Source: Candidatus Altimarinota bacterium (GTDB lineage Bacteria; Patescibacteriota; Gracilibacteria; UBA1369). From it: DNA of 64,000 nt. The notes below the pieces were generated by a model. That model ran no database searches, had not been told where the DNA came from, and was given only the letters and a program-made list of their open reading frames with translations. Position numbers and translations under genes: made by a program. Each line of letters starts with the position of its first letter. Positions within the stretch are counted from its first letter, which is position 1. The stretch spans positions 32,001 through 96,000 of the forward strand of contig OY782391.1 in NCBI GenBank assembly GCA_963677745.1, in the 5' to 3' direction. Positions 6,003 through 58,888 of this stretch are shown in pieces.

Positions 6003-6940
6003 CTTTTATGGAAATGTTTAATCTAATCAGAAGAAATCTTATAATTTTCCTTTTAACCGCACTGATCTGTTTGGGAGCGGGTCTACTTGCCCAAAAGGCC
6101 TTTTTACAGATGAAATATGAGAATTCTATATTTCTGGTTTTCGGTGTGGAAGACCGTTTGAAGGGAGGGGATCCCTATGAAAATCTTCAGGCCGCCGATC
6201 AGATTACGGAAAGTATACAGGGCTGGATCAAAGATCCCTCATTCCAAAAGGAAATTGCCGGCATTACCGGTAATGATTTTTCCATCAAAGCCAAAAAACA
6301 GGAGAAAAACAATCTGCTGATCACCTTCAACACGGCCGATTTGACCGCAAATAACTCCTACAAGGAAGCCATTTTATCACTATTAAATCAAAAGATTTCC
6401 GTTTACAACAATAATTCCGATCTTCAGATTAACCTGGCCTCACAGACCTATAATCTTGATGAAAACCGCTATCTCCCCGCAGTGGTACTGATGCTGGCTG
6501 GATTATTCGGTCTTTTGATAGGCGTCATTTTTTCATATTTGTATGAAAAAATGACGGGAAAAGTGTCTTTTCTCAAGGAGATCAGCTTTTTTTTCAGCAC
6601 GGTCCGGCCTTTTTCTTTTAAAAATGAAAAACATTTAAAAACGGGTTTTCCCTTTTTGTACAAACACCTTATGTCGGACAATCCCGGAAATCAGTTGCAA
6701 ATACTGCACTTTTCCACCCCCTCCAAAGTCCTCCAAACAATGTTTTCCGAACAGGAAAACATTAAGGGAGTCACAGAACTTTGCATTCCCGACAATCTCC
6801 AGGACGTCCGCATTGATCTGCCGACAGTTTTGATCTGCCAACCTGGAGCAACTCCCCGCGGCGGATTGGACTATCTTTCCGAATTAAATTTCTCCCGGCT
6901 GGAAATTGTCGTTTTCGACAGACTGAAATCGCAGAGATAA
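5999..6940 (+). CDS. Wzz/CapA-like polysaccharide chain-length protein
   Basis: Two TM helices flanking a soluble loop; coupled to the glycosyltransferase by an ATGA overlap. Confidence 0.55.
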   Translation: MTFMEMFNLIRRNLIIFLLTALICLGAGLLAQKAFLQMKYENSIFLVFGVEDRLKGGDPYENLQAADQITESIQGWIKDPSFQKEIAGITGNDFSIKAKKQEKNNLLITFNTADLTANNSYKEAILSLLNQKISVYNNNSDLQINLASQTYNLDENRYLPAVVLMLAGLFGLLIGVIFSYLYEKMTGKVSFLKEISFFFSTVRPFSFKNEKHLKTGFPFLYKHLMSDNPGNQLQILHFSTPSKVLQTMFSEQENIKGVTELCIPDNLQDVRIDLPTVLICQPGATPRGGLDYLSELNFSRLEIVVFDRLKSQR

Positions 6941-23470: not shown

Positions 23471-23749
23471 ATGAAACAAAAGATAAATCCGCATTTCGTC
23501 AAAATGTGCAAACAGGGGATAGCGGGTGCGGCAATGGGAATAGTTGCCGGATTTTTATTGGGAATAATAATCTATTTCCTGCAATATCCGCTGGTCTGGA
23601 TCGGCATTTTATTGGATGGAGCGAGAAATCCAAACCTGTGGCAGCAGCCAGGAATGTGGATCTCGGCAGTGATGCCGGGCACATTGGGAATGTCATTTGG
23701 TGCGATTATCGGAGGTATTTTCGGATCACTTTATGGCCTAAAAGACTAA
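23471..23749 (+). CDS. Small Gly-rich membrane protein
   Basis: Two GxxxG-rich hydrophobic segments. Confidence 0.6.
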   Translation: MKQKINPHFVKMCKQGIAGAAMGIVAGFLLGIIIYFLQYPLVWIGILLDGARNPNLWQQPGMWISAVMPGTLGMSFGAIIGGIFGSLYGLKD

Positions 23750-23859: not shown

Positions 23860-23887
23860 ATTTCGTACAAGATACATTATTCTGAAT
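23860..23887 (+). repeat. attL, dif-like 11-6-11 site
   Basis: ATTTCGTACAA GATACA TTATTCTGAAT; its first 19 nt match the right-end copy at 18 positions. Confidence 0.85.
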
Positions 23888-23900
23888 CTTGTTTTGATCT

Positions 23901-23933
23901 GCTAGGTCAATCGTTTACGATGACCTGGTTTTT
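23901..23933 (+). terminator. Intrinsic terminator-like hairpin just inside attL
   Basis: GCTAGGTCA-A-TCGT/ACGA-TGACCTGGT followed by a T run. Confidence 0.55.
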
Positions 23934-23981
23934 AATGGGCATGATGGGCATTTGCCGTTCCAGAACTCCATCATCACAATC

Positions 23982-24011
23982 ATTATAACTCACTAGGCCA
24001 CTAGAAGTCAA
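23982..24011 (-). promoter_or_regulatory. Sigma70-like leftward promoter pointing towards attL
   Basis: Minus strand TTGACT-N18-TATAAT. Confidence 0.45.
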
Positions 24012-24137: not shown

Positions 24138-24962
24138 ATGCAAAACATAGAAACAACCTTTACCGAGGGGGACAACATCATCAAAGAATACGCGACATTT
24201 GACCCGGAACGCGAGGAACAAAACAAGATCAACGCCAAAAACGCTGAGCTATTATTCAACGTCCCCTTTTTCCCTTATCAGATTAAGGTGCAAAAAGAGC
24301 ACGGGCTTTCTGATCTTGAAACAAAATTGTTTAGTTTTATTCAGTATTATGCCGGAGGGGGTGGGGAGTTTTACGCCTCAAACCCGAAGTTGGGGCAGTA
24401 TTTCGGCTGTCATAAAGACACGATTAGCACAGCGGTTGGTGTCCTGGCCAAAAAGGGGCTGGTAATAACTGGAATAAAGGTGCTCGGCAACGGGAATTCG
24501 GTCAGAAAATTGAGCGTAGGTGTAAACGCCGAGGGGGGTAGGTATAAACACCTAGGGGGGTCGGTGAAAACACCTAGGGTCATAGGTGAAAAGACCGACA
24601 TATATAAATTAAAAGAAATTAAAGTAAATACATCTCCTATCGGAGATACGGGCAAGGCCCCAAAAGAGACAAAAGAAATTCAAAAAAAACAGGAATACGG
24701 GAAGCCGGAAATTAACCAGATGCTTTCCGCCCTAAAAGCCAAGATCGGGGTCGAGGCATTCGCAGACAGCGGAATTGAAAGAAATATTGCACAGCATTGC
24801 ATCAACCTAATGGGCCGGATCGGTGTTAAGGAATTTTCCCGGCGGCTTGACTTAATTCTTGACGATGCTTTCAAACACAAAAACTGCAACCGCATTCGGT
24901 TCGTTTATTCGGAAATTAAGGGATTCATTGAGCCGGTCCGGCAGACGATCCCATCATTTTAA
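24138..24962 (+). CDS. Phage replication initiator (N-terminal winged HTH)
   Basis: LSDLETKLFSFI...FYASNPKLGQYFGC...IS.AV..L.KKGLV; internal iteron array as in lambda O. Confidence 0.75.
   Translation: MQNIETTFTEGDNIIKEYATFDPEREEQNKINAKNAELLFNVPFFPYQIKVQKEHGLSDLETKLFSFIQYYAGGGGEFYASNPKLGQYFGCHKDTISTAVGVLAKKGLVITGIKVLGNGNSVRKLSVGVNAEGGRYKHLGGSVKTPRVIGEKTDIYKLKEIKVNTSPIGDTGKAPKETKEIQKKQEYGKPEINQMLSALKAKIGVEAFADSGIERNIAQHCINLMGRIGVKEFSRRLDLILDDAFKHKNCNRIRFVYSEIKGFIEPVRQTIPSF
24517..24630 (+). repeat. Putative phage origin: four 22-bp-period iterons plus AT-rich tract
   Basis: TAGGTGTAAACGCCGAGGGGGG / TAGGTATAAACACCTAGGGGGG / TCGGTGAAAACACCTAGGGTCA / TAGGTGAAAAGACCGACA, then TATATAAATTAAAAGAAATTAAAGTAAATA. 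Confidence 0.8.
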
Positions 24963-27530: not shown

Positions 27531-27931
27531 CGTACATCGTCGCAATATTCCTGGTCCTGTTGGACTTGGTTTCGGATAAAATAATAAACCCCGTCTCGAT
27601 TTTCAAAACACCCGTAGGCTTCAAGGATTGTCAGATCGGAAAGATTACTGGCGCACGTTTTATCGACGGCGTCCTGGCTTTTCCAAACAGGTGATGGGCC
27701 GATGTAAACGGGGACTGTTTCAAAAGTGATTGGGTTGATTTCGGCAAACGCTGAAAAACAATTAAAAAGGGTGTCGGCTGAAACTTCCGATACTTTTTTC
27801 AGGCATTCGGGAAACCTTGAGCTGATTTTTTCCATGGGTTTTTGTTCCGGGGGACGGGGCGTTTCGACTGGTGGGGTGCTGCAACCGACCAAAGCAAAAG
27901 CGAGCCCAATCATCAATAAATACATTTTCAT
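27527..27931 (-). CDS. Cys-rich lipoprotein (moron-like)
   Basis: Lipobox LVGC and a Pro-rich linker; opposite strand, between terL and portal. Confidence 0.7.
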   Translation of the reverse strand: MKMYLLMIGLAFALVGCSTPPVETPRPPEQKPMEKISSRFPECLKKVSEVSADTLFNCFSAFAEINPITFETVPVYIGPSPVWKSQDAVDKTCASNLSDLTILEAYGCFENRDGVYYFIRNQVQQDQEYCDDVR

Positions 27932-27985: not shown

Positions 27986-28030
27986 TTGACATTCGACTTT
28001 CTACGAGTATCTTGCGGAATTGGCGCAGGG
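27986..28030 (+). promoter_or_regulatory. Conserved phage promoter, copy 1 (portal)
   Basis: TTGACA-N16-TATCTT-N8-GGCGCAGGG. Confidence 0.7.
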
Positions 28031-45315: not shown

Positions 45316-45449
45316 TTTTTTGATTATTTCAATTTATCCTATTTAAACACAATCATTTGCTATTGGTCAAATGTATTGTCTGAATCATGCCTTGATCCGT
45401 TTTGGTGGGGGTATATGATCGAAAAAATAAATTAAATAACCCACAAATT

Positions 45450-46232
45450 ATGGCAAGAAAACAGCCGGTCCAGCTTTCCTTGATACCTCACGAGATCCAG
45501 TCAAATATCGTCACACAAAGAGCCGTTGACGGATATATTAACGCCACGGCCATGTGTAAGGCGGCCGGGAGGGAGTTTTCAGAATATAAGAGGAACAAAG
45601 CTACTATTGCCTTTATTGACGCCCTTTCTGCCGAGCTGGGAATTTCACAGGACGGCTTAATTCAGTCCATTGTCGGAGGCGTCCCGGAATATCAGGGGAC
45701 TTGGATTCACCCTCAAGTCGCAATCCATTTGGCCCAATGGCTTTCCCCTCAATTTGCTGTCCAGGTATCAAAGTGGGTTTTTGAGTGGCTTTCTGGTGGA
45801 GGAAAGGACACTATGCCCTATCACCTGAGGCGGTACATAGCCAACAGGGGAAATATTCCTCACACTCACTTTTCTATTCTGAATGAGGTTATATTTGGGC
45901 TGGTCGCTCCGTTGGAAAGCCAGGGGTACACATTGCCCGAAAAACTGGTCCCGGACATCTCAGAGGGAAAAATGTTTTCGTCCTGGTTGATCTCAAAGGG
46001 CATAGATCCTAAAAAATTTCCCAGATATTACCATCGTTACGAGGACGGCCGGGTCGTAGATGCCCGATTATATCCCAACGAGGTTTTGGCCGAATTTAGA
46101 CAGCATTTTAATGAGGTTTGGCTGCCGGAAAGGTCAAAACTGTATTTTCAGGAAAGAGACCCAGAGGCTTTGCCATATCTGGAACAGGTGCTAATCGCCA
46201 TCGGTTACAACAAGCCAAAACAACTCAATTGA
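45450..46232 (+). CDS. KilA-N domain DNA-binding protein
   Basis: DGYINATAMCKAAG...QGTWIHPQVAIHLAQWLSPQFAVQV. Confidence 0.88.
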   Translation: MARKQPVQLSLIPHEIQSNIVTQRAVDGYINATAMCKAAGREFSEYKRNKATIAFIDALSAELGISQDGLIQSIVGGVPEYQGTWIHPQVAIHLAQWLSPQFAVQVSKWVFEWLSGGGKDTMPYHLRRYIANRGNIPHTHFSILNEVIFGLVAPLESQGYTLPEKLVPDISEGKMFSSWLISKGIDPKKFPRYYHRYEDGRVVDARLYPNEVLAEFRQHFNEVWLPERSKLYFQERDPEALPYLEQVLIAIGYNKPKQLN

Positions 46233-46253
46233 CGGGGACGGATAATCATTAGC

Positions 46254-46298
46254 TTGCATTTTAAGAATTCCAGCGTATCTTTCGGAATTGGCGCAGGG
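46254..46298 (+). promoter_or_regulatory. Conserved phage promoter, copy 3 (before lysis module)
   Basis: TTGCAT-N16-TATCTT-N8-GGCGCAGGG. Confidence 0.65.
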
Positions 46299-46312
46299 TA
46301 AGAAGTCAATTT

Positions 46313-47167
46313 ATGGCTATCACTTACCTGAGAACACCCGTTTATCGCGGAACAAATGTCGCTGGACAAACTGCAATGGTCAACGGCCAGCCTTATGTTA
46401 TGAGGGGTGCATCTTCTGGCGTGGCAACCCGGACGCTTCCAAACTATGTGCAAGGACGCCCAGTCACCGAAGATGACATCTCCAACGCCCGAAATGCTCA
46501 GGCCCAGGCTGTCGCAACAGTCGGCAATTACACCCCGGACGGGATCCAGATTAATAAAGTCCGCCAAGGGTGGCTTTCAAATCAAAACCCAGAATTGAGG
46601 GGAGGTATTGCCGAGGTTTCTGTTAATGGCAAGCCAATTCGCGTACCAAACGCGCTTTTACAACAAATGATGTTTACCGACGCCTGGAATCAGGGCCGGA
46701 GCAATGAAGTCGGCGATTTTTTCAATGGCAGAGCAAACCCGGATCCGAAAACTTATGGTTACACAAATTATGACGCGACCCAACAGCGTTTTGACAAGAT
46801 TTTAGCCGCAAATCCGCAATGGACAAATGACGCGCCGCTGAATCCTTACAAGGCGGCCGAGGAAAAAGCCCAGGCAGCCGCCGGCCGGTATCAAAAAATT
46901 ATGGACCAGATGGGACAACCCATGAAAGAAAGCCGGGCAGCAGGGGGACAATTTATGGGTGGCGACACTATGGGTGGCTTAAAAAGCGAGGCCGACAAGG
47001 CGTTGGCCGAGGCCCAATCATATTCCCCAGAACTTAACGCGCGCCGGGGCCGGTATTTTGGGGAATTGCAGGGTACGCGAATGCTCGAAGCACAAAGAAA
47101 AGCTTTTGAGGGTGGCGTTAAACCAACCTATTCAAATTTACCGATTCAGGAAAGAATTATTAAATAA
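46313..47167 (+). CDS. Phage late hypothetical protein (possible virion protein)
   Basis: 284 aa, Q/G/N-rich, behind a conserved promoter. Confidence 0.6.
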   Translation: MAITYLRTPVYRGTNVAGQTAMVNGQPYVMRGASSGVATRTLPNYVQGRPVTEDDISNARNAQAQAVATVGNYTPDGIQINKVRQGWLSNQNPELRGGIAEVSVNGKPIRVPNALLQQMMFTDAWNQGRSNEVGDFFNGRANPDPKTYGYTNYDATQQRFDKILAANPQWTNDAPLNPYKAAEEKAQAAAGRYQKIMDQMGQPMKESRAAGGQFMGGDTMGGLKSEADKALAEAQSYSPELNARRGRYFGELQGTRMLEAQRKAFEGGVKPTYSNLPIQERIIK

Positions 47168-47177
47168 CAAATCCAAA

Positions 47178-47375
47178 ATGAAAGATAAATTAATAAAATC
47201 AGCCTTAATCGCATTGGGCGGAGCTTTGATTACTGTTTTGCCCCTTTTAACTGTTGAAATAACCGACTGGCTCACAAAGTCCGATCCTATTGATTGGAAA
47301 ACGCCGGTTGCAATGGCGATAACTGCCGCTGGAACGTGGGCGGTAAACACAATCCGCGAGCTTATTAAAAAATAA
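47178..47375 (+). CDS. Holin-like protein
   Basis: Two TM segments and a basic C-terminus, immediately upstream of the amidase. Confidence 0.7.
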   Translation: MKDKLIKSALIALGGALITVLPLLTVEITDWLTKSDPIDWKTPVAMAITAAGTWAVNTIRELIKK

Positions 47376-47379
47376 ATAT

Positions 47380-47994
47380 ATGCAGGCAATTTTCATTGAG
47401 GCCGGCCATGGAAAGTCTCTTTTAGGCATAAAAAAAGACGTCGGAGCGGTGGGAAAATTTGGCTCAAACGTCTATACTGAAAGATCAATTGTCCTGGAAC
47501 TGGCCCGGCGCATCATCACGATTTTAAAAGCCAAGCCAGAACTCAAACATTGTTTGATTCAAGGGAATGGTGTCGAAACTGATGCGACGATCAGAGCGAA
47601 AATGAAATACGTAAATACAGTAATTCAAGAAAATCGGTTTTTACCTTCCAAGTGTCTTGGTGTTGCAATCCACATGAACGCCAGCGGATCAAATCAACCA
47701 GGCGGATTTGAGACATGGTATCAAGTAAACGGGAAAAGCAAGCCACTTGCTGAATATATGGTTAGGGCTTGGCAAGAATACAAAATCACACCTTTGAGGC
47801 CGAGGCCGCTGAATAACAATAAAAATGGGCGTTACGGGCGATTCTATACCGACGACGCGCTTTGTCCTTACGTCATTATCGAAACTTCTTTTATTTCCAA
47901 TCTTGAGGACGTCAAATCAATTATCTCGAATTATGACCGGGCGGCCGAATGTTTGGCACATGGCATAATGGAGTTTATCAGAGCAAATGGCTAA
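47380..47994 (+). CDS. Endolysin, N-acetylmuramoyl-L-alanine amidase (Amidase_3)
   Basis: IFIEAGHG, ER, AIHMNA and IIETSFISN zinc/catalytic motifs. Confidence 0.88.
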   Translation: MQAIFIEAGHGKSLLGIKKDVGAVGKFGSNVYTERSIVLELARRIITILKAKPELKHCLIQGNGVETDATIRAKMKYVNTVIQENRFLPSKCLGVAIHMNASGSNQPGGFETWYQVNGKSKPLAEYMVRAWQEYKITPLRPRPLNNNKNGRYGRFYTDDALCPYVIIETSFISNLEDVKSIISNYDRAAECLAHGIMEFIRANG

Positions 47995-48379
47995 AAAAAA
48001 CCGTTACTCGCAAACAATCCATCACGTCGTCCCAAGTTCCAGACGGGACGAGGGGTTTGACACTTCAAATAAACGCAATTTAAGGGATCTCCGCAAAACC
48101 TACCATGAAAACTGGCATCGTCTTTTTGCAAACAAAACGCCGGCTGAGATTATTGATTCGGTTGTCCAGATGCAGCACAATGTCATAAATCAAAAGGTCA
48201 GACGGGTAATTGAGGGGCTTTGCGATTTACCAAAATCTGATTTTTACATTCCAGACGTGTTGACCGAATATGCCGACGAAGATTTCGACCCGATGGACGT
48301 TGAGCTGGTCCGGGGAGAATTAAAAAAGCGGATCCAAGAATTACTTGACTGGATCGACGGTTTTAACGGTGATGTTTAG
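47987..48379 (+). CDS. HNH-like endonuclease
   Basis: TIHHVVPSSR...NL......H..WH.LF. Confidence 0.65.
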   Translation: MAKKNRYSQTIHHVVPSSRRDEGFDTSNKRNLRDLRKTYHENWHRLFANKTPAEIIDSVVQMQHNVINQKVRRVIEGLCDLPKSDFYIPDVLTEYADEDFDPMDVELVRGELKKRIQELLDWIDGFNGDV

Positions 48380-49241
48380 AGTGGATTTCCTGTAAATATT
48401 TGTCGGTAACGTGGGTATAAACCTGGGTTGTCGTTATTGAGGCGTGGCCCAAAAGTTGCTGAATTGCAGGCAGGGGAGCACCATTCCTTAAAAGCTCAGT
48501 TGCAAATGTATGGCGCAAACTATGGGGAGTAACTTTTTTCTTTATTCCGGCTTTCAGGGCGTAGGTTTTTACAATTATTTCGATCATCGCAACGCCCAGG
48601 CGTTTACCATTCCCGGAAACAAACAGCGCGTTTGATTTATCAGTCCTAAGGGACAAATACCGATCAAGACTTTTTCGGGCGACGTCCGAGATAAAAACAA
48701 GCCGATATTTTCGGCCTTTTCCTAAAACCCGGACATTGTTACTCAGCACATCGTCCCGATTCAAACTGGACAACTCCCGGACCCGGCAGCCGGTAGAATA
48801 CAAAACCCGGATTATCGCCGTGTTACGAATCGACCTGAACAAATCACAATCTTTTATCTCAAGTAATTTTTTCAGCTCCGGCATTTCCAAATAACACGGC
48901 TCCGGCCTGCTATATTTACAGGTTTCTATTTTATAGTATTTCAGCGTCGGGAAGTCCCGAATAAAACAAAATTTCAGAAATTGTCGGAGGACGATCAGGT
49001 GATACTGGACAGAGTTAAAACCGAGCCCCTTTTCCCTTAGTTTTAGGCGGAAACTATCAATATCCGAGCAATCTATCAGCTTTATATCTTTTCCCCGTAA
49101 AACCTCTAAAAACGCATATAAACAAGACTTGTAGTTTCTGAGCGTAAAAGGGGAGTAATTTTTGATAATTTCTAAATACTCTAGATATTTGTCAATCAAG
49201 TCAAGCACATGGTAAATCCGCCCGTCCACTATTTCACACAT
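48363..49241 (-). CDS. XerC/XerD-like tyrosine recombinase (probable integrase)
   Basis: YLEYLEI.KNYS..TLRNY SAM-like N-terminus; TGCRVREL, GKG.K.R, TPHSLRHTFAT and LLGH....TTQVYTHV. Confidence 0.92.
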   Translation of the reverse strand: MCEIVDGRIYHVLDLIDKYLEYLEIIKNYSPFTLRNYKSCLYAFLEVLRGKDIKLIDCSDIDSFRLKLREKGLGFNSVQYHLIVLRQFLKFCFIRDFPTLKYYKIETCKYSRPEPCYLEMPELKKLLEIKDCDLFRSIRNTAIIRVLYSTGCRVRELSSLNRDDVLSNNVRVLGKGRKYRLVFISDVARKSLDRYLSLRTDKSNALFVSGNGKRLGVAMIEIIVKTYALKAGIKKKVTPHSLRHTFATELLRNGAPLPAIQQLLGHASITTTQVYTHVTDKYLQEIHSKHHR

Positions 49242-49266
49242 ATTTAAACAAAGATTAAATAATTTA

Positions 49267-49434
49267 TTACAAATTTATTAACTTTTGTTTGGATATTGTT
49301 TTTGCGAGCGTAATTATTTCGTCTGCCTGGTCGGTCCCGACTGCATCGTTTAATTGGTCGAAAATTTCGATCATAGAAAGTGTCAGCTCCAACGCCTTGA
49401 GTTTTAAGACGTGAATTTTTTGTTTATTTGTCAT
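49267..49434 (-). CDS. Small phage protein (55 aa)
   Basis: Own translation MTNKQKIHVLKLKALE...; fills the gap in the leftward operon. Confidence 0.4.
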   Translation of the reverse strand: MTNKQKIHVLKLKALELTLSMIEIFDQLNDAVGTDQADEIITLAKTISKQKLINL

Positions 49435-49621
49435 CTGGTTTGTGAAGTTTAAAGGTGGATTTTCTAAGCCGGATCCTGTTTAGAATAATGACCCTCGTTT
49501 TTGGGGTAGGTTGGCAGGGATTGTCCAGGGGATTTGCCGTCCTTAGCGAGCAGTTTTGACATTCCAAAACATCGAATCCTTCGGAGGTTTTAAATCCTGT
49601 CAGGATAAATCGGTGTTTCAT
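49424..49621 (-). CDS. Small phage protein with CxxC
   Basis: ORF track; ATGA-coupled to the upstream ORF. Confidence 0.45.
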   Translation of the reverse strand: MKHRFILTGFKTSEGFDVLECQNCSLRTANPLDNPCQPTPKTRVIILNRIRLRKSTFKLHKPDDK

Positions 49622-49791
49622 GGCATTAAAAGGGTTAAACCCTCGCGCGAGATCATTGTTTTTCTGTCCGATCTGGACAGGTGGTTTCGCAGCCTGAATT
49701 CGTTGATTTTTAAGATTGCATAGAACGCCTGTTTGGAGACGCCTAAATATTTTGCCGCCATTTCGGCGTCAAACCATCGTTTTGGTTTCAT
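49618..49791 (-). CDS. Excisionase-like HTH protein (57 aa)
   Basis: Own translation MKPKRWFDAEMAAKYLGVSKQAFYAIL..., a Xis/HTH_17 pattern; near the recombinase. Confidence 0.6.
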   Translation of the reverse strand: MKPKRWFDAEMAAKYLGVSKQAFYAILKINEFRLRNHLSRSDRKTMISREGLTLLMP

Positions 49792-49801
49792 AAGTTTTGG
49801 A

Positions 49802-49999
49802 TTATTTTATTTTTTGTTTAGCGAGCCATTTAAGCGATTCCCTTGCGAGTTTTAACTTTTGTCGGTTGTTTTCGAGTGTTCGGGGATTGGGTCTGATCCC
49901 AACCTGGTAAATTTGCCATTCTAAATGCTCGATTCTTTCCTTTAAAAGATATTTTAAGAGTGCTTTTGGGTTGTCGATTGGCTTTGTTTTTGGTGTCAT
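49802..49999 (-). CDS. Phage hypothetical protein
   Basis: ORF in the leftward operon. Confidence 0.5.
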   Translation of the reverse strand: MTPKTKPIDNPKALLKYLLKERIEHLEWQIYQVGIRPNPRTLENNRQKLKLARESLKWLAKQKIK

Positions 50000-50344
50000 T
50001 TTTTGTTTGATAAGAAAATTTGACGATTTGGGTTGGCGTGAGCCCGGTTTCAGCCTGAATGAAAAGGATCGGGGCGTTCTTTCTAAGCAAGTCGAAAAGA
50101 CGCTCCCGGGTTTCGGTGAGCATTTTGTTTTTTTGGTTATATGTTAATGAAAGGGGAGAAAAATTAACGGGGGAGGTCTGTCATGTTAATTGCGGCTAAC
50201 TTGTTTTTTCCAATTCTTTCTTGGCTTTTTCAAGATCATCGGCAAGATACCTCAACGCGAAAATGTGTTCGTCCAGGGAATCGCAAAACCGCTGGGCGTT
50301 AATCACGGTGGCCAATAACAATAAGAATTTTTGAGTGTTTTCGT

Positions 50345-50749
50345 TCATTTTTTTGGGGTTAATAAATCCGAGTTTTCGTATATGTTTCCGATAAGTTCAA
50401 TGTCATAATCATAAAACTCACCTGCCCTATCCCGATATGTCGAAAGGGGGAAATACAACACAGAATTGTTGAACGCCCAAGTGTATTGATTGTATTCAAT
50501 GGCAAGGACTTTCCATTCAAAGTCGGGTTCTCCATGCTTCCAGTTTTCTTTCAGATTGTTTATGCGAACAAGGTCGCCTTCAAAAATTTCTTTTCCGTTT
50601 TTGTCGGTCAGGCCGGTAAACTGCATATAAACACAGTCAATAGTCGGATCAACGGCCGGCCTGATTCTGATTGCCTGTTCAAGGGAAAAAGGCTCTCCCA
50701 TTGTTTTGTCTGCCTTATTCCAAGCTCTAAATTTTATCGTTCTGGTCAT
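50345..50749 (-). CDS. YopX-family protein
   Basis: IKFRAW, MQFTGL.DKNGKEIFEGD and IGNIYEN. Confidence 0.92.
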   Translation of the reverse strand: MTRTIKFRAWNKADKTMGEPFSLEQAIRIRPAVDPTIDCVYMQFTGLTDKNGKEIFEGDLVRINNLKENWKHGEPDFEWKVLAIEYNQYTWAFNNSVLYFPLSTYRDRAGEFYDYDIELIGNIYENSDLLTPKK

Positions 50750-51044
50750 TGGTTGGTTGATTAATTGGTTTGATTTGGACTTCCAGATCTACAAGATATT
50801 TTTTTAGTAAAAAAATCGTTTTCGGATTCTGATAATCAAGCTGGTTGGCCTTGATCTGGTTACAGGTTTTGCATAGAAAGCGGAAGTTTTCGGCATCTTC
50901 GTAAACCGCGTCGATCTGCAGAAGTTGCCGCATTAATTGGACCGGGATAATATGATCGACTGTTTCAGCTTGGCGGCCGCATGGACAAAGATGGGTTTCC
51001 GCTTCTTGCTGCCAAAGAAACAGTTTGGAGTGTTTCTTTTTCAT
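50727..51044 (-). CDS. HNH endonuclease
   Basis: CPCG...TVDHIIP...N...LCKTCN..K. Confidence 0.85.
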   Translation of the reverse strand: MKKKHSKLFLWQQEAETHLCPCGRQAETVDHIIPVQLMRQLLQIDAVYEDAENFRFLCKTCNQIKANQLDYQNPKTIFLLKKYLVDLEVQIKPINQPTNDQNDKI

Positions 51045-52521
51045 TTATTTGTAGGTGTCAAGAATACCTTTTCTGATAGCTTCCCATTGTTCCTCGGTCA
51101 ATACCACGTCCAGCAGGCCAGTCGTAATTATCGGCTGGGGGATTTCAGCCATACCCTCTCTACGATTTGACCAATGGTTTTGGTGTTCCTCGTATTCTTG
51201 CCGCTGGGCATCGTATTTGGGATTATCTTCTTGTTTTGTGATTCGCAATTTGTAGTACATATTTTGGGGGTTAATTTGGATTATTTTTAATCGACTTTGA
51301 ACGTGTTCAAAATTTCCTCGGCTCTTTTTAAACTGTGCAGGTCGGATTGGAATTTTTCTATTGCCTGAGCTAAAACATTTTGAACAGAATCTCTTTGCAT
51401 AATTTTCTGGTGCGGCAATAGGGGGACTTTAGGCAGTTTTATGGAGCTGGGTTTGGGACCACTTCGGGGGTTAGGCAGTCCGGCTGCCTTACGTTTTGCC
51501 CACCAGGCTTTTTTTGCGGCCGCCTGCCTTTCCCTGGCGGACGTTGGGTTATCAGTTCCCATTTCCCCGGGATCCGATTCGTCAATAACATCGCTTTCAA
51601 ATTTAGCCTGTTGTCTCCGGGCTGGGGCAGTCATCATAAGGTATTGACGCCGGACCTCCATATAAAGGGATTTGTCGTCGGCCAGTTCACATTCAAGCGC
51701 ATCAAAGCTGGTCAGTCCGTCCAAAACACGTTTCGCGTGGTGTTTCGCTTTGTTTTCCCGTTCTTCGGACGCTCTTTCTTCTTCGTTTTTAGTCATTGTT
51801 TATTTCGTTAAAAGTTGGACTTCGGTCGGTGTCGGCATAGGGCTCGATCAGTTTATAGGCCGCATCGATCCGGCCCCGGGCATGAGCTGTAACGTCGTTA
51901 ATTTCCTTAAATAAAACGACCTCGCCCGATTCCAGCCGGCAGATAAGCTCTTTTGTGCAGGTCAGGGTTTGGGCCAGTTCGTCCTTGGCGTCCTGGTTGT
52001 TTGTTTGGTCAAACAGTTCTTGAGCTTCCGCATGGTGAGCATAAAGGCTGTCTAAAGGGTTTTTCATGGTTTTATTAGTGAATGAATTATGCGACGAAAC
52101 CAATTTCCCGGGAGGGGCTTTCCTTTTAAAAGGCCGACGGCTGTTTTTGTTCGCCTGATTGCCGCAACTCGGACCGTTGACCTGGTGGATTTTAGAGCCT
52201 TCCGATATTTGTTTCGTTTTGTAGGATCCTTTGGGGTTTTGATAAATCGAGCCCCTTTATTTTGGGTTGTTTTCATCTTAGGTTTTTAAGTGTTTCATTA
52301 AGCAAGTAACGGATCAGGTCAATTTCGCTTTCTATGCGATAACCTTCATAGGAAGCGGCCTCAGCGGTGGCCAAAACGTCCCGGGCTCTTTCAAGCCGGC
52401 ATTCATTATCGTGCCGAAGCCGGCCGGCCGGTTGTTCCTCGATGATGTCCTGGACCCGGGCAATTTCTTGTCTCGCTTCCTCCAATTCGGGTTTGATAAA
52501 GGATAGGGATAATTGGGTCAT
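51045..52521 (-). other. Run of small early-region hypothetical genes (51045-51260, 51287-51796, 51789-~52067, 52064-52276, 52273-52521)
   Basis: Tightly packed, often stop/start-overlapping minus-strand ORFs; no family recognised. Confidence 0.55.
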
Positions 52522-52715
52522 TCTTCTGGTTTGTAACAGTATAAAAAGCCGTAGTCGTTGGTTGCCGTCTTGCCACCTATTTCCTTGCAGTTAGAAAGTT
52601 CTGCAAGGTTTAATTGATGTCGTTTGGCTTGTAATTCCTCCCTTGTTTCGAGAGTTGAGCAGCCAAAAAGAAAAAGGGCCGTTGCCGCTAAAAGAAAAAT
52701 TACTTTTTTGGGCAT
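52518..52715 (-). CDS. Small lipoprotein
   Basis: MPKKVIFLLAATALFLFGC lipobox. Confidence 0.6.
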   Translation of the reverse strand: MPKKVIFLLAATALFLFGCSTLETREELQAKRHQLNLAELSNCKEIGGKTATNDYGFLYCYKPEE

Positions 52716-52883
52716 TTGATTGGCTTAATTTTTAAGTGAGCAAGGCGGTAGCCGGCGAGCGGCCAGTTGTGTTTCTCAGTTAGGGCAAGCCTGCGTGAAA
52801 GGAAAACGTCAGTCGGTATTCCATTAGGTAAAATTAAAAACCAAAGATGCCATTGTTTAACTTTTTTCATAAATTTTGTTTGT

Positions 52884-53222
52884 TTAAGAATATTGTTTGA
52901 TAATTTCGATAGCTTCGTCTGCCCCGTAGCAAATATGGGCGGCCACGTTGTCGCATTTATTCAGATCGTCGATCCATATTTGTTGGGTGTCGCTGACTTT
53001 GCTTTGTTTTCGTCGTTTCATTTCAATAAAAACAAGACTGTCTTTGACAATCACCAGTAAATCGGGCAGTCCGGGGCGTAAGCCCTGCCGATAGTTTTTA
53101 GCCTTTTGGGCGTTGCTGGTGGTGTAGGTTGAATTGGGGATCGCGGTAAACTTAAACCCGTTATATTCCAGCCATTCGACAAACGCTGCCTGTTCCTCGG
53201 CCTCTTTTGGTGTTTCATTCAT
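52884..53222 (-). CDS. VRR-NUC domain nuclease (Holliday junction resolvase-like)
   Basis: EQAAFV.WL, G..PGLPDL, FIEMK and S..Q..W. Confidence 0.88.
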   Translation of the reverse strand: MNETPKEAEEQAAFVEWLEYNGFKFTAIPNSTYTTSNAQKAKNYRQGLRPGLPDLLVIVKDSLVFIEMKRRKQSKVSDTQQIWIDDLNKCDNVAAHICYGADEAIEIIKQYS

Positions 53223-53503
53223 GGCCGGAGGGTTAGAATGTCTGGAAAAAGATCATAAAGTTTTCTTGCCTGGACAACCGATTGTCGAGCTGCCTTTTTT
53301 TTGTGTAATTTTGCATGGCATTTAGAGCAGCAAATTAAAAGGTTGTCTTTATGATTCAAATTCGGGTGTTTGGGGGCTTCGGAGCGGAAAACAATATGAT
53401 GGACTTCCCAAAAGAATGTCCGGCTTGTTCCGCACATCTGGCAGCTTAGAAACCCCTGTTGATCGATCAGTTCTTTCTTGGCTTCCGCTGCCGTTTCTAG
53501 CAT
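53219..53503 (-). CDS. HNH endonuclease
   Basis: CQMCG...EVHHIVFRS...NL...CSKCH..LH. Confidence 0.88.
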   Translation of the reverse strand: MLETAAEAKKELIDQQGFLSCQMCGTSRTFFWEVHHIVFRSEAPKHPNLNHKDNLLICCSKCHAKLHKKKAARQSVVQARKLYDLFPDILTLRP

Positions 53504-53972
53504 TGGTCGAGCGGTTTAATTGTGACCTCGAAATGCATATTTTCCGGGTAGGCTTCCAACCCGATCACCTGGGCAAACAAAGCGCGCTCGACTTCCATTT
53601 CGACGCCTATCTGGCCCCGGTTTTTTAGGGATTTGTTGTTCTTAACCAACACCTCGTTGGTGATAAATTTAATTTCTTGCATTGAAAATTTTTGTTATGT
53701 GTTAATTTTTGGGTAAATCTGCCTTATGCCGCATGATTCGATACACCAAATCACTTGGGCGTTGATCTTTTCAGCGGTGCGGATTGCCTCGTTTTCATAA
53801 TGAGATTCAAAAACGATTTGTCCGTCCTTCCGCACCTGGTATGAATTGGCCTCAAGGTCGGCCTGGTCGCGCTTTTTTTGTGATTCCTCCCAGATTTTCC
53901 GTTCCTGTTTGTCTTTCAGGCTTTCGGCTTCTGCGCCCTGCCATTGCTCAAACTTTTGTGTTTTTTTGGTCA

Positions 53973-54119
53973 TCAAGTTGTTGTTATTGGTGGATCCTCG
54001 GAAAGTAGTCCTTTACTTTTCAGGTATGCAATATGGGGGGAGGGCTTGGCCGGGACATAACGGCAGTTCCCCATTTTCTTTGCATTTTTCGCCCTCCGCC
54101 TATCTGCTCTATTTGTCAT
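53973..54119 (-). CDS. Small arginine-rich-motif protein (48 aa)
   Basis: Own translation MTNRADRRRAKNAKKMG...; its TGA overlaps the ATG of the next gene. Confidence 0.5.
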   Translation of the reverse strand: MTNRADRRRAKNAKKMGNCRYVPAKPSPHIAYLKSKGLLSEDPPITTT

Positions 54120-54642
54120 CAATTATTTGGTTAAAGTGTTTTTTGAGCGACGTTCGGGACGGGGCAGCTTGAGCCGGAGCAGGGGAGATTCAATTGTCCG
54201 TCAAACGTGACGTGTCCACGGACCTGACGGGCGAAACAATAGGTCAGCGGCAAACCCTCGTTATGCGCCTGGACAAAGTCCCAGCCGCAAGGTGCGGAGG
54301 CGTTACCGAGCCAGAAAAGAGCGACGAACATGGAAGCGATTAGTTTTTTCATTTTGATTGGGTTAATGAAATAAAAACTATTCACGAAATTTAATGCCCC
54401 AAATAAAAACTGTAATTGAGGCGGCGGCGAGCAGGGTCGCCAGTAGTGCGAAGCCAAACAGGGCAGCGGAAATTGTGTAAGTGATAAACATTAAGTAAGC
54501 TCCCCAAACGCAATTAAATAAAAGCAGGGAAAGCGTGCATGAGTGGATAGCGAATTTCATTTTGTTTTGGTTATTAATTAAGACGCCCGGGGCTGGCCCG
54601 GGTCGGGTAGGGCTGGTCAAGCCCCTTTGATTACGGTTGAAA

Positions 54643-55176
54643 CTACGGGAACAAAATCATGTTTTTTACTTTCGCGCGCCGGTTATAGCCGCAAAACTTC
54701 TTTTTTCCGCATGAAGTCGTCCAGTCTGGCTGGTTATAGACTTTCCAATGATATTCAGCGATTTCTTTAATCGAGATTTCCTTTTTCAGGATCCGGGCGA
54801 TCATTTCCTTATGGTAATAAGAATTCAGCCCGAAAGAATAATCCCAGCTCCCGTCCCGGTTGCGGTTCGGGTGTTTGATAAACGGGTCGAAACTTCCGTT
54901 TTCCGCTGCCATTGTCAGGATAAAGTCTTTATCTCCGCCGGAGACTTCCCAGAATATTCGGAGGGCATCTTGGGCAATCGCTCCTTTCCAGCTTCGGAAT
55001 ACTGGAAAGTTATTAACTGGGTTATCGTCTCCGATAAGGCCAACAGCTCCTTTATCAGGTTGTAGTGCGCCCGGAGCGTTCGCCAAATCATCACTTGCCC
55101 CGTCCCCAGGCAAAGAATCGCCAGGGCGAGAAATGACAGCAGAATTTCCATCGGAAGAGGGGTTAAAGTTTAACAT
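54643..55176 (-). CDS. Lysozyme-like / lytic transglycosylase domain (probably expressed as a frameshift fusion)
   Basis: TMAAENG with candidate catalytic Glu, NRDGSWDYSFGLN; starts with a disordered linker. Confidence 0.6.
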   Translation of the reverse strand: MLNFNPSSDGNSAVISRPGDSLPGDGASDDLANAPGALQPDKGAVGLIGDDNPVNNFPVFRSWKGAIAQDALRIFWEVSGGDKDFILTMAAENGSFDPFIKHPNRNRDGSWDYSFGLNSYYHKEMIARILKKEISIKEIAEYHWKVYNQPDWTTSCGKKKFCGYNRRAKVKNMILFP

Positions 55177-55205
55177 GCCGGTTTTCGGCTTAGCCGGCGT
55201 GCCGG

Positions 55206-55523
55206 TTAAAAAGAACAGTCCTGGTCCCGTTTCTTGGCCAGATCGTTTCTGTCGATGTTTTCAAGTTTCACCCCGTTCATATCATCTTCGAGTTTAAGAG
55301 AAGCTAAATTTTTTATTAATTCGCATCTTTTAACAGCGGTTTCATGCTCGAAATTTTCGAGGATTAACTGAGCAGCAGGGGATTGGGCCTGATAATTGTC
55401 TTTCGCCTGGACATCAGGTTGAGATATCCAAATATAAGCGCAGAAAGCCAGGACGACGATTGCCGTCAGTCCGATTACATTTTGCTTAATAGATAAGCCG
55501 TTTTTTGTTTTTTCAGTATTCAT
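55206..55523 (-). CDS. Single-TM membrane-anchored protein
   Basis: Basic N-terminus, TM helix, helical region; ends TCT TTT TAA. Confidence 0.65.
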   Translation of the reverse strand: MNTEKTKNGLSIKQNVIGLTAIVVLAFCAYIWISQPDVQAKDNYQAQSPAAQLILENFEHETAVKRCELIKNLASLKLEDDMNGVKLENIDRNDLAKKRDQDCSF

Positions 55524-55527
55524 TGTT

Positions 55528-55710
55528 TTATTTTTTAGTGGTTAATTTCCTTGCTGCTCTGTTGCAGCGATCGCAGCCGCTAACTTGCCAAGGTTCGTAA
55601 ACCTTTTCCCCACAATAGCGACATTCGTAGGGGGACATTGATAGGCGGCATTCAAAGCATTTGGTTTCCCAAATTCTTAAAGAATTGCCGCATTTACAGG
55701 TTCTAATCAT
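55528..55710 (-). CDS. Small Cys-rich zinc-finger protein
   Basis: Four Cys pairs in 60 aa. Confidence 0.5.
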   Translation of the reverse strand: MIRTCKCGNSLRIWETKCFECRLSMSPYECRYCGEKVYEPWQVSGCDRCNRAARKLTTKK

Positions 55711-56060
55711 GGCAAATTGAATTATGTTGCCTGACGTTGTTCTGGATCTGGTTTAGGGATTCGACCTGATGGACAAGCCGGAAAACCTGTTCAAAGTCCA
55801 GGGGATTGGTAATGTCGGCCAAATTTGATTTGACCTTTTGTTGATCTTGCATGATAATTGTTGGTGAATGAATGATTAAGGCCGTTTGCAGACGGTCTTT
55901 TTTAGTGCGCCATCGCTGGCGCGTGGTATTTGCAAAGCATTTCGCGACCCTGATCTTCGCCGTCGTCATCGTAAATGACGGCTTCGGTGACAGCGTGATT
56001 TTTGCAATTGGGAAAGTCGCAGGCGACATAGTCGCCGGCATCTTGTAATTTGTGCATAAT

Positions 56061-56732
56061 TTAGAAGTTAGGAGGTGAAATATCGCGGTCCGGGACGACA
56101 ATGTCGTTTAACCAAAGTTCTTTATCGGTTGCGGATCCGTCTTTTGGAGCGCGGTAATAAACCCTATCGCCGTTCTTAACTACTGCATACCAGGATCGGC
56201 CCTCAAAAGCCCCGGTTACCATATCGTTACCGTCTTTGTCCTTGCCCTGGTAAGTCCAGTATTTATTCTTTCCTTCCCGGGCCTGTTTTGCGGCTCTAGT
56301 AGGGGAATTGCCGTCCTCTTTTTGGTCATCTTTCTGGGTGTTTTTCCAGACATCTTTGCCTATTTCCAGATAGGAGCCAATCTTGGTGAGGGCATCGGTC
56401 ATGGCCCCTTTCAGGGCGTCGCCCTTGTCCTCGTTGTCGTTTCCACCAAACTGTTCAAGCTCGATGTCATATTCTTGGACGGTAAAAGTTGCCTTGACAG
56501 TAAGCATTCGGGAAACTTTTTGCTCACCTTGTTTTGTCGTATATTCGCGATTTTCCTCGCCCAAACATTCGGCCTTTAATTTCCAGCCGCCTATTCCAAA
56601 CACTTGGTTTAGACGTTCGGTTACATAGATGGCGTTAATTGAGGAAAGGTGTCGTTTGGTCGGGTGCGGTTTGATTGCTTCGGGCGGTAAAGGCTCTCGA
56701 AGCATCGCCGCCAGATTTTCAGGTAGTTTCAT
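56061..56732 (-). CDS. Rad52/Sak-like single-strand annealing protein
   Basis: LREPLP, YVTERLNQVFG..GW and KGAMTDAL.K....L.IG. Confidence 0.85.
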   Translation of the reverse strand: MKLPENLAAMLREPLPPEAIKPHPTKRHLSSINAIYVTERLNQVFGIGGWKLKAECLGEENREYTTKQGEQKVSRMLTVKATFTVQEYDIELEQFGGNDNEDKGDALKGAMTDALTKIGSYLEIGKDVWKNTQKDDQKEDGNSPTRAAKQAREGKNKYWTYQGKDKDGNDMVTGAFEGRSWYAVVKNGDRVYYRAPKDGSATDKELWLNDIVVPDRDISPPNF

Positions 56733-56800
56733 TGGATTAATTGGTTACAGAAAAAGACCTGTCATTGAGGCAGGGGCAATTTCTTTCGTTTATAGAGGCT

Positions 56801-57049
56801 TTACGCCTTTTTTGTGTAGCGATTCCCAGTCTTGCGATTAGGGAAGCTATAACGGGATTTGCGTTTAAAAGCGTCCATTTTGGCTAACAGTTCAGGCGCA
56901 AACCTTGCAGCGAGCGTATAATTTAGAAGCTCGGTAATGGTGGTCTGATCTTGGACAGCCTTTTTTTTCATAGAATCAATAATCGACCTATGAATTCGGA
57001 ATCGACTTTCTTTCGCGTCCTCCCGTGGGAACAGTCCGATTATTGGCAT
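56801..57049 (-). CDS. Ribbon-helix-helix-like DNA-binding protein (candidate regulator)
   Basis: SRFRIHRSIIDSMKKKAVQDQTTITELLNYTL pattern; first gene of the leftward operon. Confidence 0.55.
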   Translation of the reverse strand: MPIIGLFPREDAKESRFRIHRSIIDSMKKKAVQDQTTITELLNYTLAARFAPELLAKMDAFKRKSRYSFPNRKTGNRYTKKA

Positions 57050-57075
57050 AAGAGATGGAAATTAATTTGTTGGTA

Positions 57076-57104
57076 TTGACCGCATGGCGGCTGCGGAATA
57101 TAAT
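57076..57104 (+). promoter_or_regulatory. Near-consensus sigma70 promoter pointing out through attR
   Basis: TTGACC-N17-TATAAT. An overlapping minus-strand TTGCAA-N16-TATTAT (57127-57100) could drive the leftward operon. Confidence 0.65.
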
Positions 57105-57153
57105 ATCACCGTATTTGATCTTTGCAATCCAGGGATTCCCAGACTTCTCTAGC

Positions 57154-57181
57154 ATTTCGCACAAGATACATTGTGCAAAAT
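57154..57181 (+). repeat. attR, dif-like 11-6-11 site
   Basis: ATTTCGCACAA GATACA TTGTGCAAAAT; the arms are inverted repeats matching at 10 of 11 positions. Confidence 0.88.
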
Positions 57182-57223
57182 AAACATATATTCAAAAGTT
57201 ACTGTTCCCCGTTAATTATCGTC

Positions 57224-58888
57224 CTATGAATAGTTGCCATGGTTTACAGGCACATTCAATCTCTTTGCCAGATTTTCAACTGTCATATTCTTCAGTGAAT
57301 CTGAATTTTGAGTTTCCAGAAATTTATAACAAGCAGCCGCTTTGCTTCCGCTGTCAAGACCCAGCATGAAATTTACAAACCTTACTCTGTTTTGAATAGC
57401 CAGCAAATCCCCATAATCCCCTTTTGGAGTGCCTTCATTATTGTTTTTGCCGCTAATTATCATCATCAGATTTCTAAATACAATGGCCTGCGTCGGATTC
57501 ATCGGCACCTTGGCAATATCGGTCGGAACAAAGAGTTTTGATGCCATCTCATACATGGCACGATTGGAAATAATCGAATTTAGTTCAGGACTTACGTAGC
57601 CACGCTCCGGACTATTGGAAGATTCCATTTCGTGGCCAAGATACAATATATTAACCTCTTTTTTAAATTCATTTTCACCAACAACAGCTGATCCGTTAAT
57701 CACACTGTCATTAAAAATATAGACGTTTTTAGGCTTTCCCTGTTCATCCAACAAAGGTTTTCCGTTCTCCATCAATTGTCTTACCTGAAATTCCGATACC
57801 TGACCTTCTCCGCTTTTACTCGGAAATTTAATCTGATATACCCCCGGCCTGATCTGATTGATGGCAATTTCAGTGTTTTCCGACAATTTGCTACCGGCTG
57901 AAATGTCAACATAGCCATAATCGGAACCGTTGAAGGTGGAAGGAGCGGTTGAAGCCACGGTTTTCGTTGCTTCCTCCTGTTTTTTCTGCTGTTCTTCCAG
58001 TTCTTTCGCTTTTGCTTCAGCCAATTTAGCCAATTCCTCATTCCATTTTTCCTCAGTCATCGTTTCGTCGCCCATCCAGGCCACCATATCCGTATTTAAA
58101 TCCTTGACTGTTTTCTTGGCCACCAGCATTTGTTTGTAGTCGCCCATCAGATCAGCAAACAGGCTTTCTATACTTGTTTTCAGGGGCTCAATGGCTACTT
58201 TATCTCCAAGATCGGAAAATACTCCTTCCTTGAATCCTTTTAGCAGACCATCCTTCAATTTTGCCTGTTCCGACCCTTCCGCATTAAAATAATCCTCGAT
58301 CTTGATGCGATTGTCAGGATTGTCAAAAAACGCAGCGCTTTTAACATTTATTTCTTCGGCTTTCTTTGCTTTACCCGCTTCCCTCTTTTCCGGATCCTCC
58401 TCCTTGGTCAGGTCTGTGTAAATTTGGTCGACATACTTGGTAATTCTTTTAAGCATCAATTCATTCCGGATATTCTCCAATTCTTTTTCCTGATTTTTCA
58501 AAACAAATTCTTCAATGGACATACTGCTTCTGACCGGCTTGCCGTTTTCATCCAATGCAGTCAGGTATTGATCCCGCCAACCATCCGGTTTGCGGTAACT
58601 CTCCGTATTCCATTTAAAATCCCTGAATACTTTTTCATAGGCTTTTTCAGGATTTTGCAGCATCTCCTCTTCCTGATTTTTCTTTTCTTCCTGCTCATTC
58701 ATTTTGGCTCTGACTTCTTCGCGCACGCTGGAAATCCTTTCAGCTTTTTTAGTCTGAAAACTTTCGCGTTTTTTCTCACGCAATCTGTTCAGCATCGCCA
58801 AATTATCGGCTGCCAAACCGGGCATTTTCCGCGGTTCTCCTGGGGCTTGTTCGATCGGGTGCGTTTCTAATGGTTTGGCTGGGGACAT
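57224..58888 (-). CDS. Hypothetical E/K-rich protein
   Basis: 554-aa ORF, coiled-coil rich; no family recognised. Confidence 0.7.
   Translation of the reverse strand: MSPAKPLETHPIEQAPGEPRKMPGLAADNLAMLNRLREKKRESFQTKKAERISSVREEVRAKMNEQEEKKNQEEEMLQNPEKAYEKVFRDFKWNTESYRKPDGWRDQYLTALDENGKPVRSSMSIEEFVLKNQEKELENIRNELMLKRITKYVDQIYTDLTKEEDPEKREAGKAKKAEEINVKSAAFFDNPDNRIKIEDYFNAEGSEQAKLKDGLLKGFKEGVFSDLGDKVAIEPLKTSIESLFADLMGDYKQMLVAKKTVKDLNTDMVAWMGDETMTEEKWNEELAKLAEAKAKELEEQQKKQEEATKTVASTAPSTFNGSDYGYVDISAGSKLSENTEIAINQIRPGVYQIKFPSKSGEGQVSEFQVRQLMENGKPLLDEQGKPKNVYIFNDSVINGSAVVGENEFKKEVNILYLGHEMESSNSPERGYVSPELNSIISNRAMYEMASKLFVPTDIAKVPMNPTQAIVFRNLMMIISGKNNNEGTPKGDYGDLLAIQNRVRFVNFMLGLDSGSKAAACYKFLETQNSDSLKNMTVENLAKRLNVPVNHGNYS

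Follow-up and report, generated by a model that had tools for sequence, protein, structure and literature searches.

The prophage described here carries its attachment site within a control cassette of about 550 bp, in which the joined site attP stands between two near-consensus sigma-70 promoters that face each other, and in the integrated state the two promoters are parted and point outwards into host DNA. The reading that best accounts for this arrangement, and that has about an even chance of being right, is a state-dependent coupling of promoters to operons on both sides of attP, in which the rightward side would be conditional on a hairpin and an 82-aa protein is the likely regulator. 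The window, by which the whole analysed stretch of 64,000 nucleotides is meant, covers positions 32001-96000 of a host genome that is a single contig of 1,335,835 bp, and the prophage within it measures 33.3 kb (genome positions 55860-89181). The elements at the two prophage ends and the adjoining host genes are the following, in window coordinates.

57076..57104, + strand: predicted promoter P(+), TTGACC-17-TATAAT, directed outwards through attR in the prophage and across attP to the rightward operon in the circle
23982..24011, - strand: predicted promoter P(-), TTGACT-18-TATAAT, 11/12, directed outwards through attL in the prophage and across attP to the leftward operon in the circle
57154..57181, no strand: attR, host-type dif-like site of 11+6+11 nt, ATTTCGCACAA GATACA TTGTGCAAAAT
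23860..23887, no strand: attL, left arm and centre like attR, right arm degenerate and phage-type (TTATTCTGAAT)
23901..23936, + strand: terminator-like hairpin of 12 pairs with one bulge, then UUUUUAAU, for + strand transcripts entering across att
56801..57049, - strand: 82-aa gene that opens the leftward operon and may encode a ribbon-helix-helix regulator or a directionality factor
57224..58888, - strand: host gene of 554 aa, whose 3' end P(+) would enter antisense
23471..23749, + strand: host membrane-like ORF of 92 aa, after recG (21414-23453), which P(-) would enter antisense

ORFs and family searches describe the element as a podovirus-like, temperate phage of a Candidatus Peregrinibacteria host with two gene blocks. 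To the rightward block (24138-48379) belong an initiator-like gene and a DUF5681 gene, genes for the large terminase, the major head protein, the scaffold, an SU10-type adaptor and large tail proteins (with a CHAP domain), and also a KilA-N/BstA-like gene and one for an amidase. The leftward block runs from 57049 down to 48363 and comprises the 82-aa gene, a Rad52-like gene, two HNH genes, a VRR-NUC gene, a YopX gene and, in its distal part, an ORF with a weak HTH_17 match followed by a Xer-family integrase, which is 40% identical to a Xer-like protein of the host, one of its two tyrosine recombinases. The replication and recombination features are these.

24138..24962, + strand: replication initiator-like gene with an HTH_36 N-terminus (1.1e-7), a conserved C-terminal domain and matches to five PHROG initiator families
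24516..24581, no strand: putative origin, formed by three iteron-like 22-bp repeats in tandem within the initiator gene
48363..49241, - strand: tyrosine integrase of the Xer family, last in the leftward operon and 8 kb away from att (NF040815, 236 bits, cut-off 220)
49618..49791, - strand: 57-aa ORF, possible excisionase; HTH_17 is matched weakly, at an E of 0.0082 that falls short of the cut-off

With a DNA-binding domain at the N-terminus and iteron-like repeats within the gene, the initiator-like gene has the make-up of a lambda O-type initiator. A search of 204 other genomes from the order gave no match to it. Scans of viral_contigs, run singly with the initiator and with the Rad52-like protein, gave none either, and nor did the large terminase against genome_contigs. 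Compared with P0002-P0010, the initiator-like protein ends in a strongly conserved domain of ~90 residues, many of them invariant, and elsewhere this domain is joined to unrelated N-termini, some of them with precomputed PF04492, PF14297 or PF09114 hits. The KilA-N protein (45402-46232, + strand) matches the PHROG family of BstA abortive-infection proteins at E 4e-60 and is a candidate for a prophage-borne defence in a CPR genome. Between the terminase gene and the following 629-aa ORF, which by position only we take to be the portal gene, lies a 134-aa ORF (27527-27931, - strand) with a lipoprotein-like signal recognised by eye; since it is absent from the related phage it has the appearance of a moron-type insertion.

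The att sites are a 28-nt repeat pair (57154-57181 and 23860-23887), and in the genome itself the only copies are attR and the degenerate attL. The left flank, recG with the 92-aa ORF, was matched in 38 of the 41 genomes searched and the right-flank query in 24 of 41, the latter matches being short beyond G000 and nearly all of them about 30 nt long at 57154-57183. In the relatives inspected this stretch lies within ~150 nt of the left-flank genes as an empty site, and homologues of the 554-aa gene end beside it in 9 of the 14 relatives' loci tested. In addition, attL is identical at 27 of 28 positions to the attP of a related viral contig, G205. At the level of sequence the att assignment is confirmed by the repeat, by the empty sites with both flanking genes in relatives and by the joined ends in G205. 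After integration attR is a whole host-type site and attL a whole phage-type site, and since attR is complete and attL resembles the attP of G205, one functional-looking site appears to be preserved. At position 7 attR carries a C where attL and the attP of G205 carry a T, a pattern unlike that of a crossover inside the 6-bp centre, so that the exchange may have taken place within the first 6 nt, or else the arm of the host may differ from that of its relatives. Contigs from four runs (two studies) all cross attR as they would in an integrated prophage, and none has a free end at att; as contigs drop rare variants and the runs only possibly include the source sample, they are uninformative on excision. 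The joined site is intergenic, and the sole ORF that spans it differs in frame between the prophage and G205.

The host site itself is a near-perfect palindrome of 28 bp (11+6+11) located between recG with the 92-aa ORF and the convergent 554-aa gene (loci L002-L020), and it is 88-100% conserved across many genera of the family. Its 12-nt core was found in 19 family genomes out of 36 searched and is single-copy in 16 of them, the exceptions being G000 with two copies (attL and attR), G007 with a control hit and G018 with a second hit in a coding region. The 23-mer of the site is found exactly in 13 MAG records titled Peregrinibacteria, Peribacteria, Gracilibacteria or Patescibacteria. By these properties it looks like a candidate dif of the Peregrinibacteria lineage. 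Along the 1.34-Mb genome the cumulative GC skew declines monotonically and nowhere reverses, so that it offers no terminus signal. A AAACGCCTTAAAACGAAAGTT-like motif at 23775-23800 recurs 3' of the recG/92-aa unit in several genera. Rfam gave no match at the dif-like site, at the junction or in the non-coding stretch of the related phage.

An earlier note on this DNA had drawn attention to a near-consensus promoter about 50 nt before attR, and the sequence bears this out: the + strand hexamers TTGACC (57076-57081) and TATAAT (57099-57104), with a 17-nt spacer, match the sigma-70 consensus at 11 of 12 positions, and the -10 element ends 50 nt upstream of the att repeat at 57154-57181. The weight of such a match was assessed by scanning the whole genome for sigma-70 hexamers with a spacer of 16-18 nt, with the reversed hexamers as control. 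Sites of at least 11/12 numbered 84, against 17 for the reversed motif; 68 of the 84 lay outside ORFs (control 2 of 17), as judged by a crude ORF set covering 92% of the genome, and 55 of the 84 were followed by a same-strand ORF start 5-300 nt 3' (control 2 of 17), the median distance in the genome from the -10 element to the start codon being 35.5 nt. An 11/12 match is therefore far above chance in this genome, on account of both the excess and the intergenic, gene-proximal placement. Such counts indicate that canonical sigma-70 promoters are in use in this organism and its lineage, and a site of the quality of P(+) is highly likely to be a promoter. In the prophage it would meet only the 3' end of an antisense host gene, as the same note had it, namely the 554-aa gene on the minus strand (57224-58888).

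Overlooked at that time was the mirror promoter P(-), which sits 95 nt inside attL, and so were the hairpin at 23901-23936, a weaker minus-strand site at 57127..57100 and the 82-aa gene. P(+) and P(-) are the sole 11/12 sites within the 33.3-kb prophage, and both ends thus carry an outward-facing promoter-like site, 50 and 95 nt from the att repeats. At the control rate (17 matches in 2.67 Mb of strand), one 11/12 site in each of the outward 110-nt end windows is expected at ~5e-7. As long as the phage is integrated, no gene on the same strand follows either site; once the ends are joined, the two sites face the two operons. In the joined form the predicted start sites are convergent and ~157 nt apart, so that interference and antisense pairing are to be expected. 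The leaders in the circle would be ~320 nt from P(+) to the initiator and ~220 nt from P(-), which is atypical here in comparison with the median of 35.5 nt.

The same face-to-face arrangement is seen in G205, an IMG/VR viral contig of 35,949 nt, classed as linear by IMG/VR and with a CheckV completeness estimate of 63%. It is colinear with a circularly permuted prophage: contig positions 1488-12784 correspond to window 46252-57172 and positions 12766-35665 to 23860-44658, and the two match segments overlap by the 19-nt core, which is the joined (attP) form. Its terminase and integrase are 84% and 83% identical to those of the prophage. P(+) is found at 6333..6361 on the + strand and P(-) at 6564..6535 on the - strand, with the att core (6411-6438) between them, so that they face each other across attP. 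All 29 of the 29 nucleotides of P(+) are identical in G205, and the 26 nt upstream of it are 58% identical; for P(-) both hexamers and the 18-nt spacing are retained with five changed spacer bases, a pattern of conservation that suits promoters. Homology between prophage and G205 ends at ~24026, just past the -35 element of P(-), and is also lost between 56045 and 56790. With homology lost on both flanks, the 82-aa gene, P(+), attP and P(-) make up one conserved module of ~550 bp between unrelated neighbours, and as a single relative was examined, 84-100% identical over the cassette, this conservation is weak evidence.

Past the junction of G205 there is no recognisable initiator among the 14 further ORFs, only ~320 nt of non-coding DNA and small ORFs. 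The non-coding stretch of the related phage (L023, 6575-6900; ~326 nt), which replaces the initiator module, is G+C-rich and folds more stably than its shuffled versions, with z of -4.1 on the + strand and -3.5 on the - strand. A third relative is represented by P0012, a protein 89% identical to the 82-aa protein, on a contig of 33,129 nt. G205 was the sole match when viral_contigs were scanned with the attL 21-mer, and neither the exact attL 21-mer nor the exact 29-nt P(+) was matched in metagenome_contigs. Convergent pairs of at least 10/12 occurred at many loci of distant TerL relatives (34-45% and 22-25% identical). Among the seven regions inspected, the two pairs traced to a reading frame (L029, L031) had their minus-strand member within a coding region and the rest were AT-rich, and the pairs were rejected as uninformative.

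The path of a P(+) transcript in the circle leads through the hairpin at 23901-23936, which has a dG of -15.3 kcal/mol and a z of -4.0, with folds as good in 0 of 200 shuffles. The same hairpin is present in G205 (-13.1 kcal/mol, z -3.2; identity in 33 of 37 alignment columns). Standing ~120 nt from the predicted P(+) start and ahead of the initiator, it would end or gate the P(+) transcript, and in the prophage it would also halt read-in from the recG side of the host. Further candidate elements of control are listed below.

57100..57127, - strand: weaker promoter-like site, TTGCAA-16-(TG)TATTAT, 9/12, the -10 of which overlaps the -10 of P(+)
27986..28013, + strand: internal promoter-like site of 10/12, TTGACA-16-TATCTT, upstream of the 629-aa ORF that comes after the terminase gene, kept in G205
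55830..55907, + strand: small antisense unit, TTGACC-17-GATAAT, 10/12 (55830-55858), then a 9-pair hairpin and six U's (55878-55905)

The 9/12 site (57127..57100) is kept in G205, and its distance of 51 nt to the 82-aa gene is typical of this genome; still being linked in the prophage, this site could serve the leftward operon in both states. In the antisense unit the hairpin begins 20 nt past the promoter-like site, and the predicted RNA of ~40 nt is antisense to the leftward operon. The related phage (G205; L023 4791-4862) keeps this unit with an 11/12 promoter and the same terminator, and the RNA could be an antisense immunity or regulatory RNA. Just 5' of the initiator ATG, at 24083-24122, there is a 12-bp inverted repeat (AAAGTAACCAAG / CTTGGTTACTTT) with a 14-nt spacer; it belongs to the module absent from the related phage and may be an operator or a leader hairpin. 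The junction also holds short repeats, namely TTTGATCT, ATGGGCAT twice and GTCAAG twice.

The earlier note had seen no CI-like HTH/S24 repressor anywhere in the element. Six-frame HMM searches of the whole genome agree with this, in that HTH_3 was matched only at 272 and 905 kb and Peptidase_S24 only at 5, 526 and 944 kb, all outside the element, and repressor families had no match among 59 ORFs. The 82-aa protein and the antisense unit at 55830-55907 are, however, other candidates for trans-acting control. The 82-aa protein has a strand-helix-helix pattern by eye, is co-conserved with the cassette and falls in an Atlas cluster with RHH_9 (score 0.93, rank 15), which is a lead only. Modelled as a homodimer it reached 0.63, against 0.00 for the best of three controls, with runs agreeing in at least 94% of contacts and a partner pLDDT of at least 72; of 30 proteins with a solved pair structure 20 attained that mark, as did 1 of 23 with a solved single-chain structure. 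The symmetric contacts of the dimer model (16:16, 18:14) would suit an antiparallel pairing of strands; modelled as a monomer, the protein is helical throughout and the model is of low information. The protein has no match in Pfam (E up to 10), to PF19839 in six frames or in NCBIfam or PHROG, a PDB profile search gave no relevant match, and only three proteins of its type were found in a large database. It is probably a regulator of the cassette.

The central proposal of the earlier note was that integration silences replication physically by parting the initiator from its promoter. The geometry agrees with that proposal: the leader in the excised circle from P(+) to the initiator ATG at 24138 is ~320 nt, and, as had been said, there is no comparable + strand promoter in 23888-24137, the best site in 23880-24145 being 8/12. 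P(+) is also separated by integration from everything beyond att. Set against physical silencing of the initiator are the hairpin, the converging P(-), the candidate regulators, the proximal 9/12 site of the leftward operon, the internal 10/12 sites and a related phage, G205, that has no recognisable initiator; the proposal is borne out in part only. As to whether att lies between promoter and initiator in relatives, it lies beyond P(+) in G205, with no recognisable initiator behind it. Since G205 keeps the cassette without the initiator, the arrangement is not about the initiator.

From these elements and their orientation, the att sites, the attP form in G205 and the pattern of conservation, all of which can be read off the DNA directly, we infer promoter activity, read-through across attP and an effect on lysogeny in the following manner. 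The cassette places attP between the two face-to-face promoters, and in the circle P(+) (57076) would read over attP into the rightward block with its initiator, packaging, structural and lysis genes, while P(-) (24011) would read over attP into the leftward block with the 82-aa protein, the recombination and nuclease genes, the possible excisionase and the integrase, so that the two transcripts would converge and overlap. The Xer-like integrase would integrate the phage into the dif-like palindrome of the host and thereby part P(+) from P(-); in the prophage both promoters would point out into the antisense strands of host genes, leaving both operons without their strongest promoter, and excision would re-couple both promoters with their operons. 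The hairpin past attP probably makes the rightward coupling conditional, that is, attenuated or dependent on antitermination. A stronger form of this coupling would have lysogeny maintained without a classical repressor, with both divergent operons driven only from across attP, integration as the step that shuts off replication together with the early and late genes, excision as the on-switch and the convergent pair deciding upon infection; this form we consider unlikely.

The cassette could instead be a switch of convergent promoters and antisense RNA under ordinary trans-acting control, which is possible, if rather doubtful. Here the P(+) RNA of ~120 nt would end at the hairpin and be antisense to the P(-) leader, acting through transcriptional interference or RNA pairing during infection, lysogeny would be kept by the 82-aa protein, the small antisense RNA or both, and the position of attP between the promoters would be incidental or serve the control of recombination. 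Several observations suit it: the hairpin with its U-run ~120 nt from the predicted P(+) start is kept in G205, the promoters stand face to face, the dimer-like 82-aa protein is co-conserved with the cassette, the proximal leftward promoter stays linked in the prophage, and the antisense unit at 55830-55907 is conserved. A precedent is phage 186, which has face-to-face pR and pL and an Apl protein that binds att and the pR-pL region (PMC7498355). Such a switch leaves unexplained, however, why integration turns both promoters outward; termination may moreover be partial, as the U-run of the hairpin is short (5 U, and 4 in G205), and the 82-aa protein lacks HMM support as a DNA binder. Decidedly improbable is the repressor-free model of the earlier note, in which integration parts the initiator from its sole promoter and excision alone starts replication. 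Its geometry fits, the sites before the initiator reach at most 8/12, the element is free of HTH_3 and S24 matches and the initiator-like gene has iteron-like repeats, but the cassette is kept in G205 without an initiator, a hairpin and a converging promoter stand in the path, there are candidate regulators, and the integrase with the possible excisionase would still require a trigger.

The outward promoters might also act in the prophage itself, either as insulators against host read-through or by modulating recombination at attL/attR or the dif-like site. The recG/92-aa unit is oriented into the rightward operon and the 554-aa gene into the leftward one, both sense to the phage operons, and no host terminator-like site was found between either flank and att; the + strand hairpin of the phage just inside attL would also stop read-in. 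This explanation is very unlikely in view of G205, which is un-integrated and has the same promoters without any host read-in, and 11/12 promoters would be costly as roadblocks. That the promoter matches are due to chance and have no function can scarcely be credited: the region is AT-rich and non-coding and there is a single close relative, but outward sites at both ends have an expectation of ~5e-7 and the hexamers are conserved amid variable neighbours.

If the state-dependent coupling of promoters to operons is real, recombination-gated transcription would occur also in tailed phages and would organise the whole genome in both directions, and a first look would be gained at the control of lysogeny in a temperate phage of uncultivated Peregrinibacteria. 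Regardless of coupling, the analysis provides a well-bounded prophage in a 1.3-Mb CPR genome with a relative in excised form, together with evidence for canonical sigma-70 promoters in the lineage and a candidate dif site.

With regard to integration, the phage may be compared with IMEX such as the CTX phage, which integrate at dif by using host recombinases. As in IMEX and in the single-recombinase dif systems of XerA and XerH, the target is a single-copy site of 11+6+11 and after integration one end is host-type and the other degenerate; the difference is that this phage encodes its own Xer-like integrase and that the dif function of the host site is predicted. Lambda sib retroregulation, the PR'-tR'-Q late control of lambda and the convergent promoters of pCF10 are other parallels. 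In coliphages 186 and P2 convergent early promoters lie a short distance apart, and the promoters of the present phage are likewise face to face and close together, with ~157 nt between the predicted starts. In 186 the small Apl protein acts at att and between the face-to-face early promoters (PMC7498355). In that phage att stands apart from the switch and CI is encoded, whereas in the present element the two promoters flank att and the searches gave no CI-type gene. The mycobacteriophages BPs and Brujita and those of cluster P have attP inside the repressor gene, so that integration truncates the protein (PMC4557955 and PMC3694055). They resemble the present phage in being temperate and tailed and in that the position of attP makes integration alter expression, which is here predicted; they differ in that attP is here intergenic and that promoter-operon units are split.

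Within the library and terms searched, no tailed phage with promoters converging across attP was found, and the closest counterparts of the coupling come from conjugative elements. In Tn916 (PMC5812530) the transfer genes are promoterless when integrated and after excision are read through the joined ends from a promoter at the other end. The likeness is that excision places genes 3' of the other-end promoter and that the transcript crosses the attachment site (PMC5812530); Tn916 is, however, a conjugative transposon with one direction of read-through and a promoter inside an operon, as opposed to a tailed phage with two opposed end promoters, known from sequence alone. Pcirc of ICEclc is strong and constitutive, directed outwards when integrated and fused upstream of the integrase gene after excision (PMC5812530), and the integrase promoter of ICEKp1 and ICEEc1 is switched by state (PMC13023037). 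Shared with these elements are an outward end promoter in the integrated state and its placement upstream of element genes once the ends join; their target is the att-adjacent integrase, which favours re-integration, whereas in the present phage the integrase is 8 kb off and a convergent pair faces whole operons. The sequence of the phage has outward end promoters, and joining of its ends puts element genes downstream of them on the same strand. A coupling of this kind in the circular form, known from conjugative elements, would be unusual for a tailed phage.
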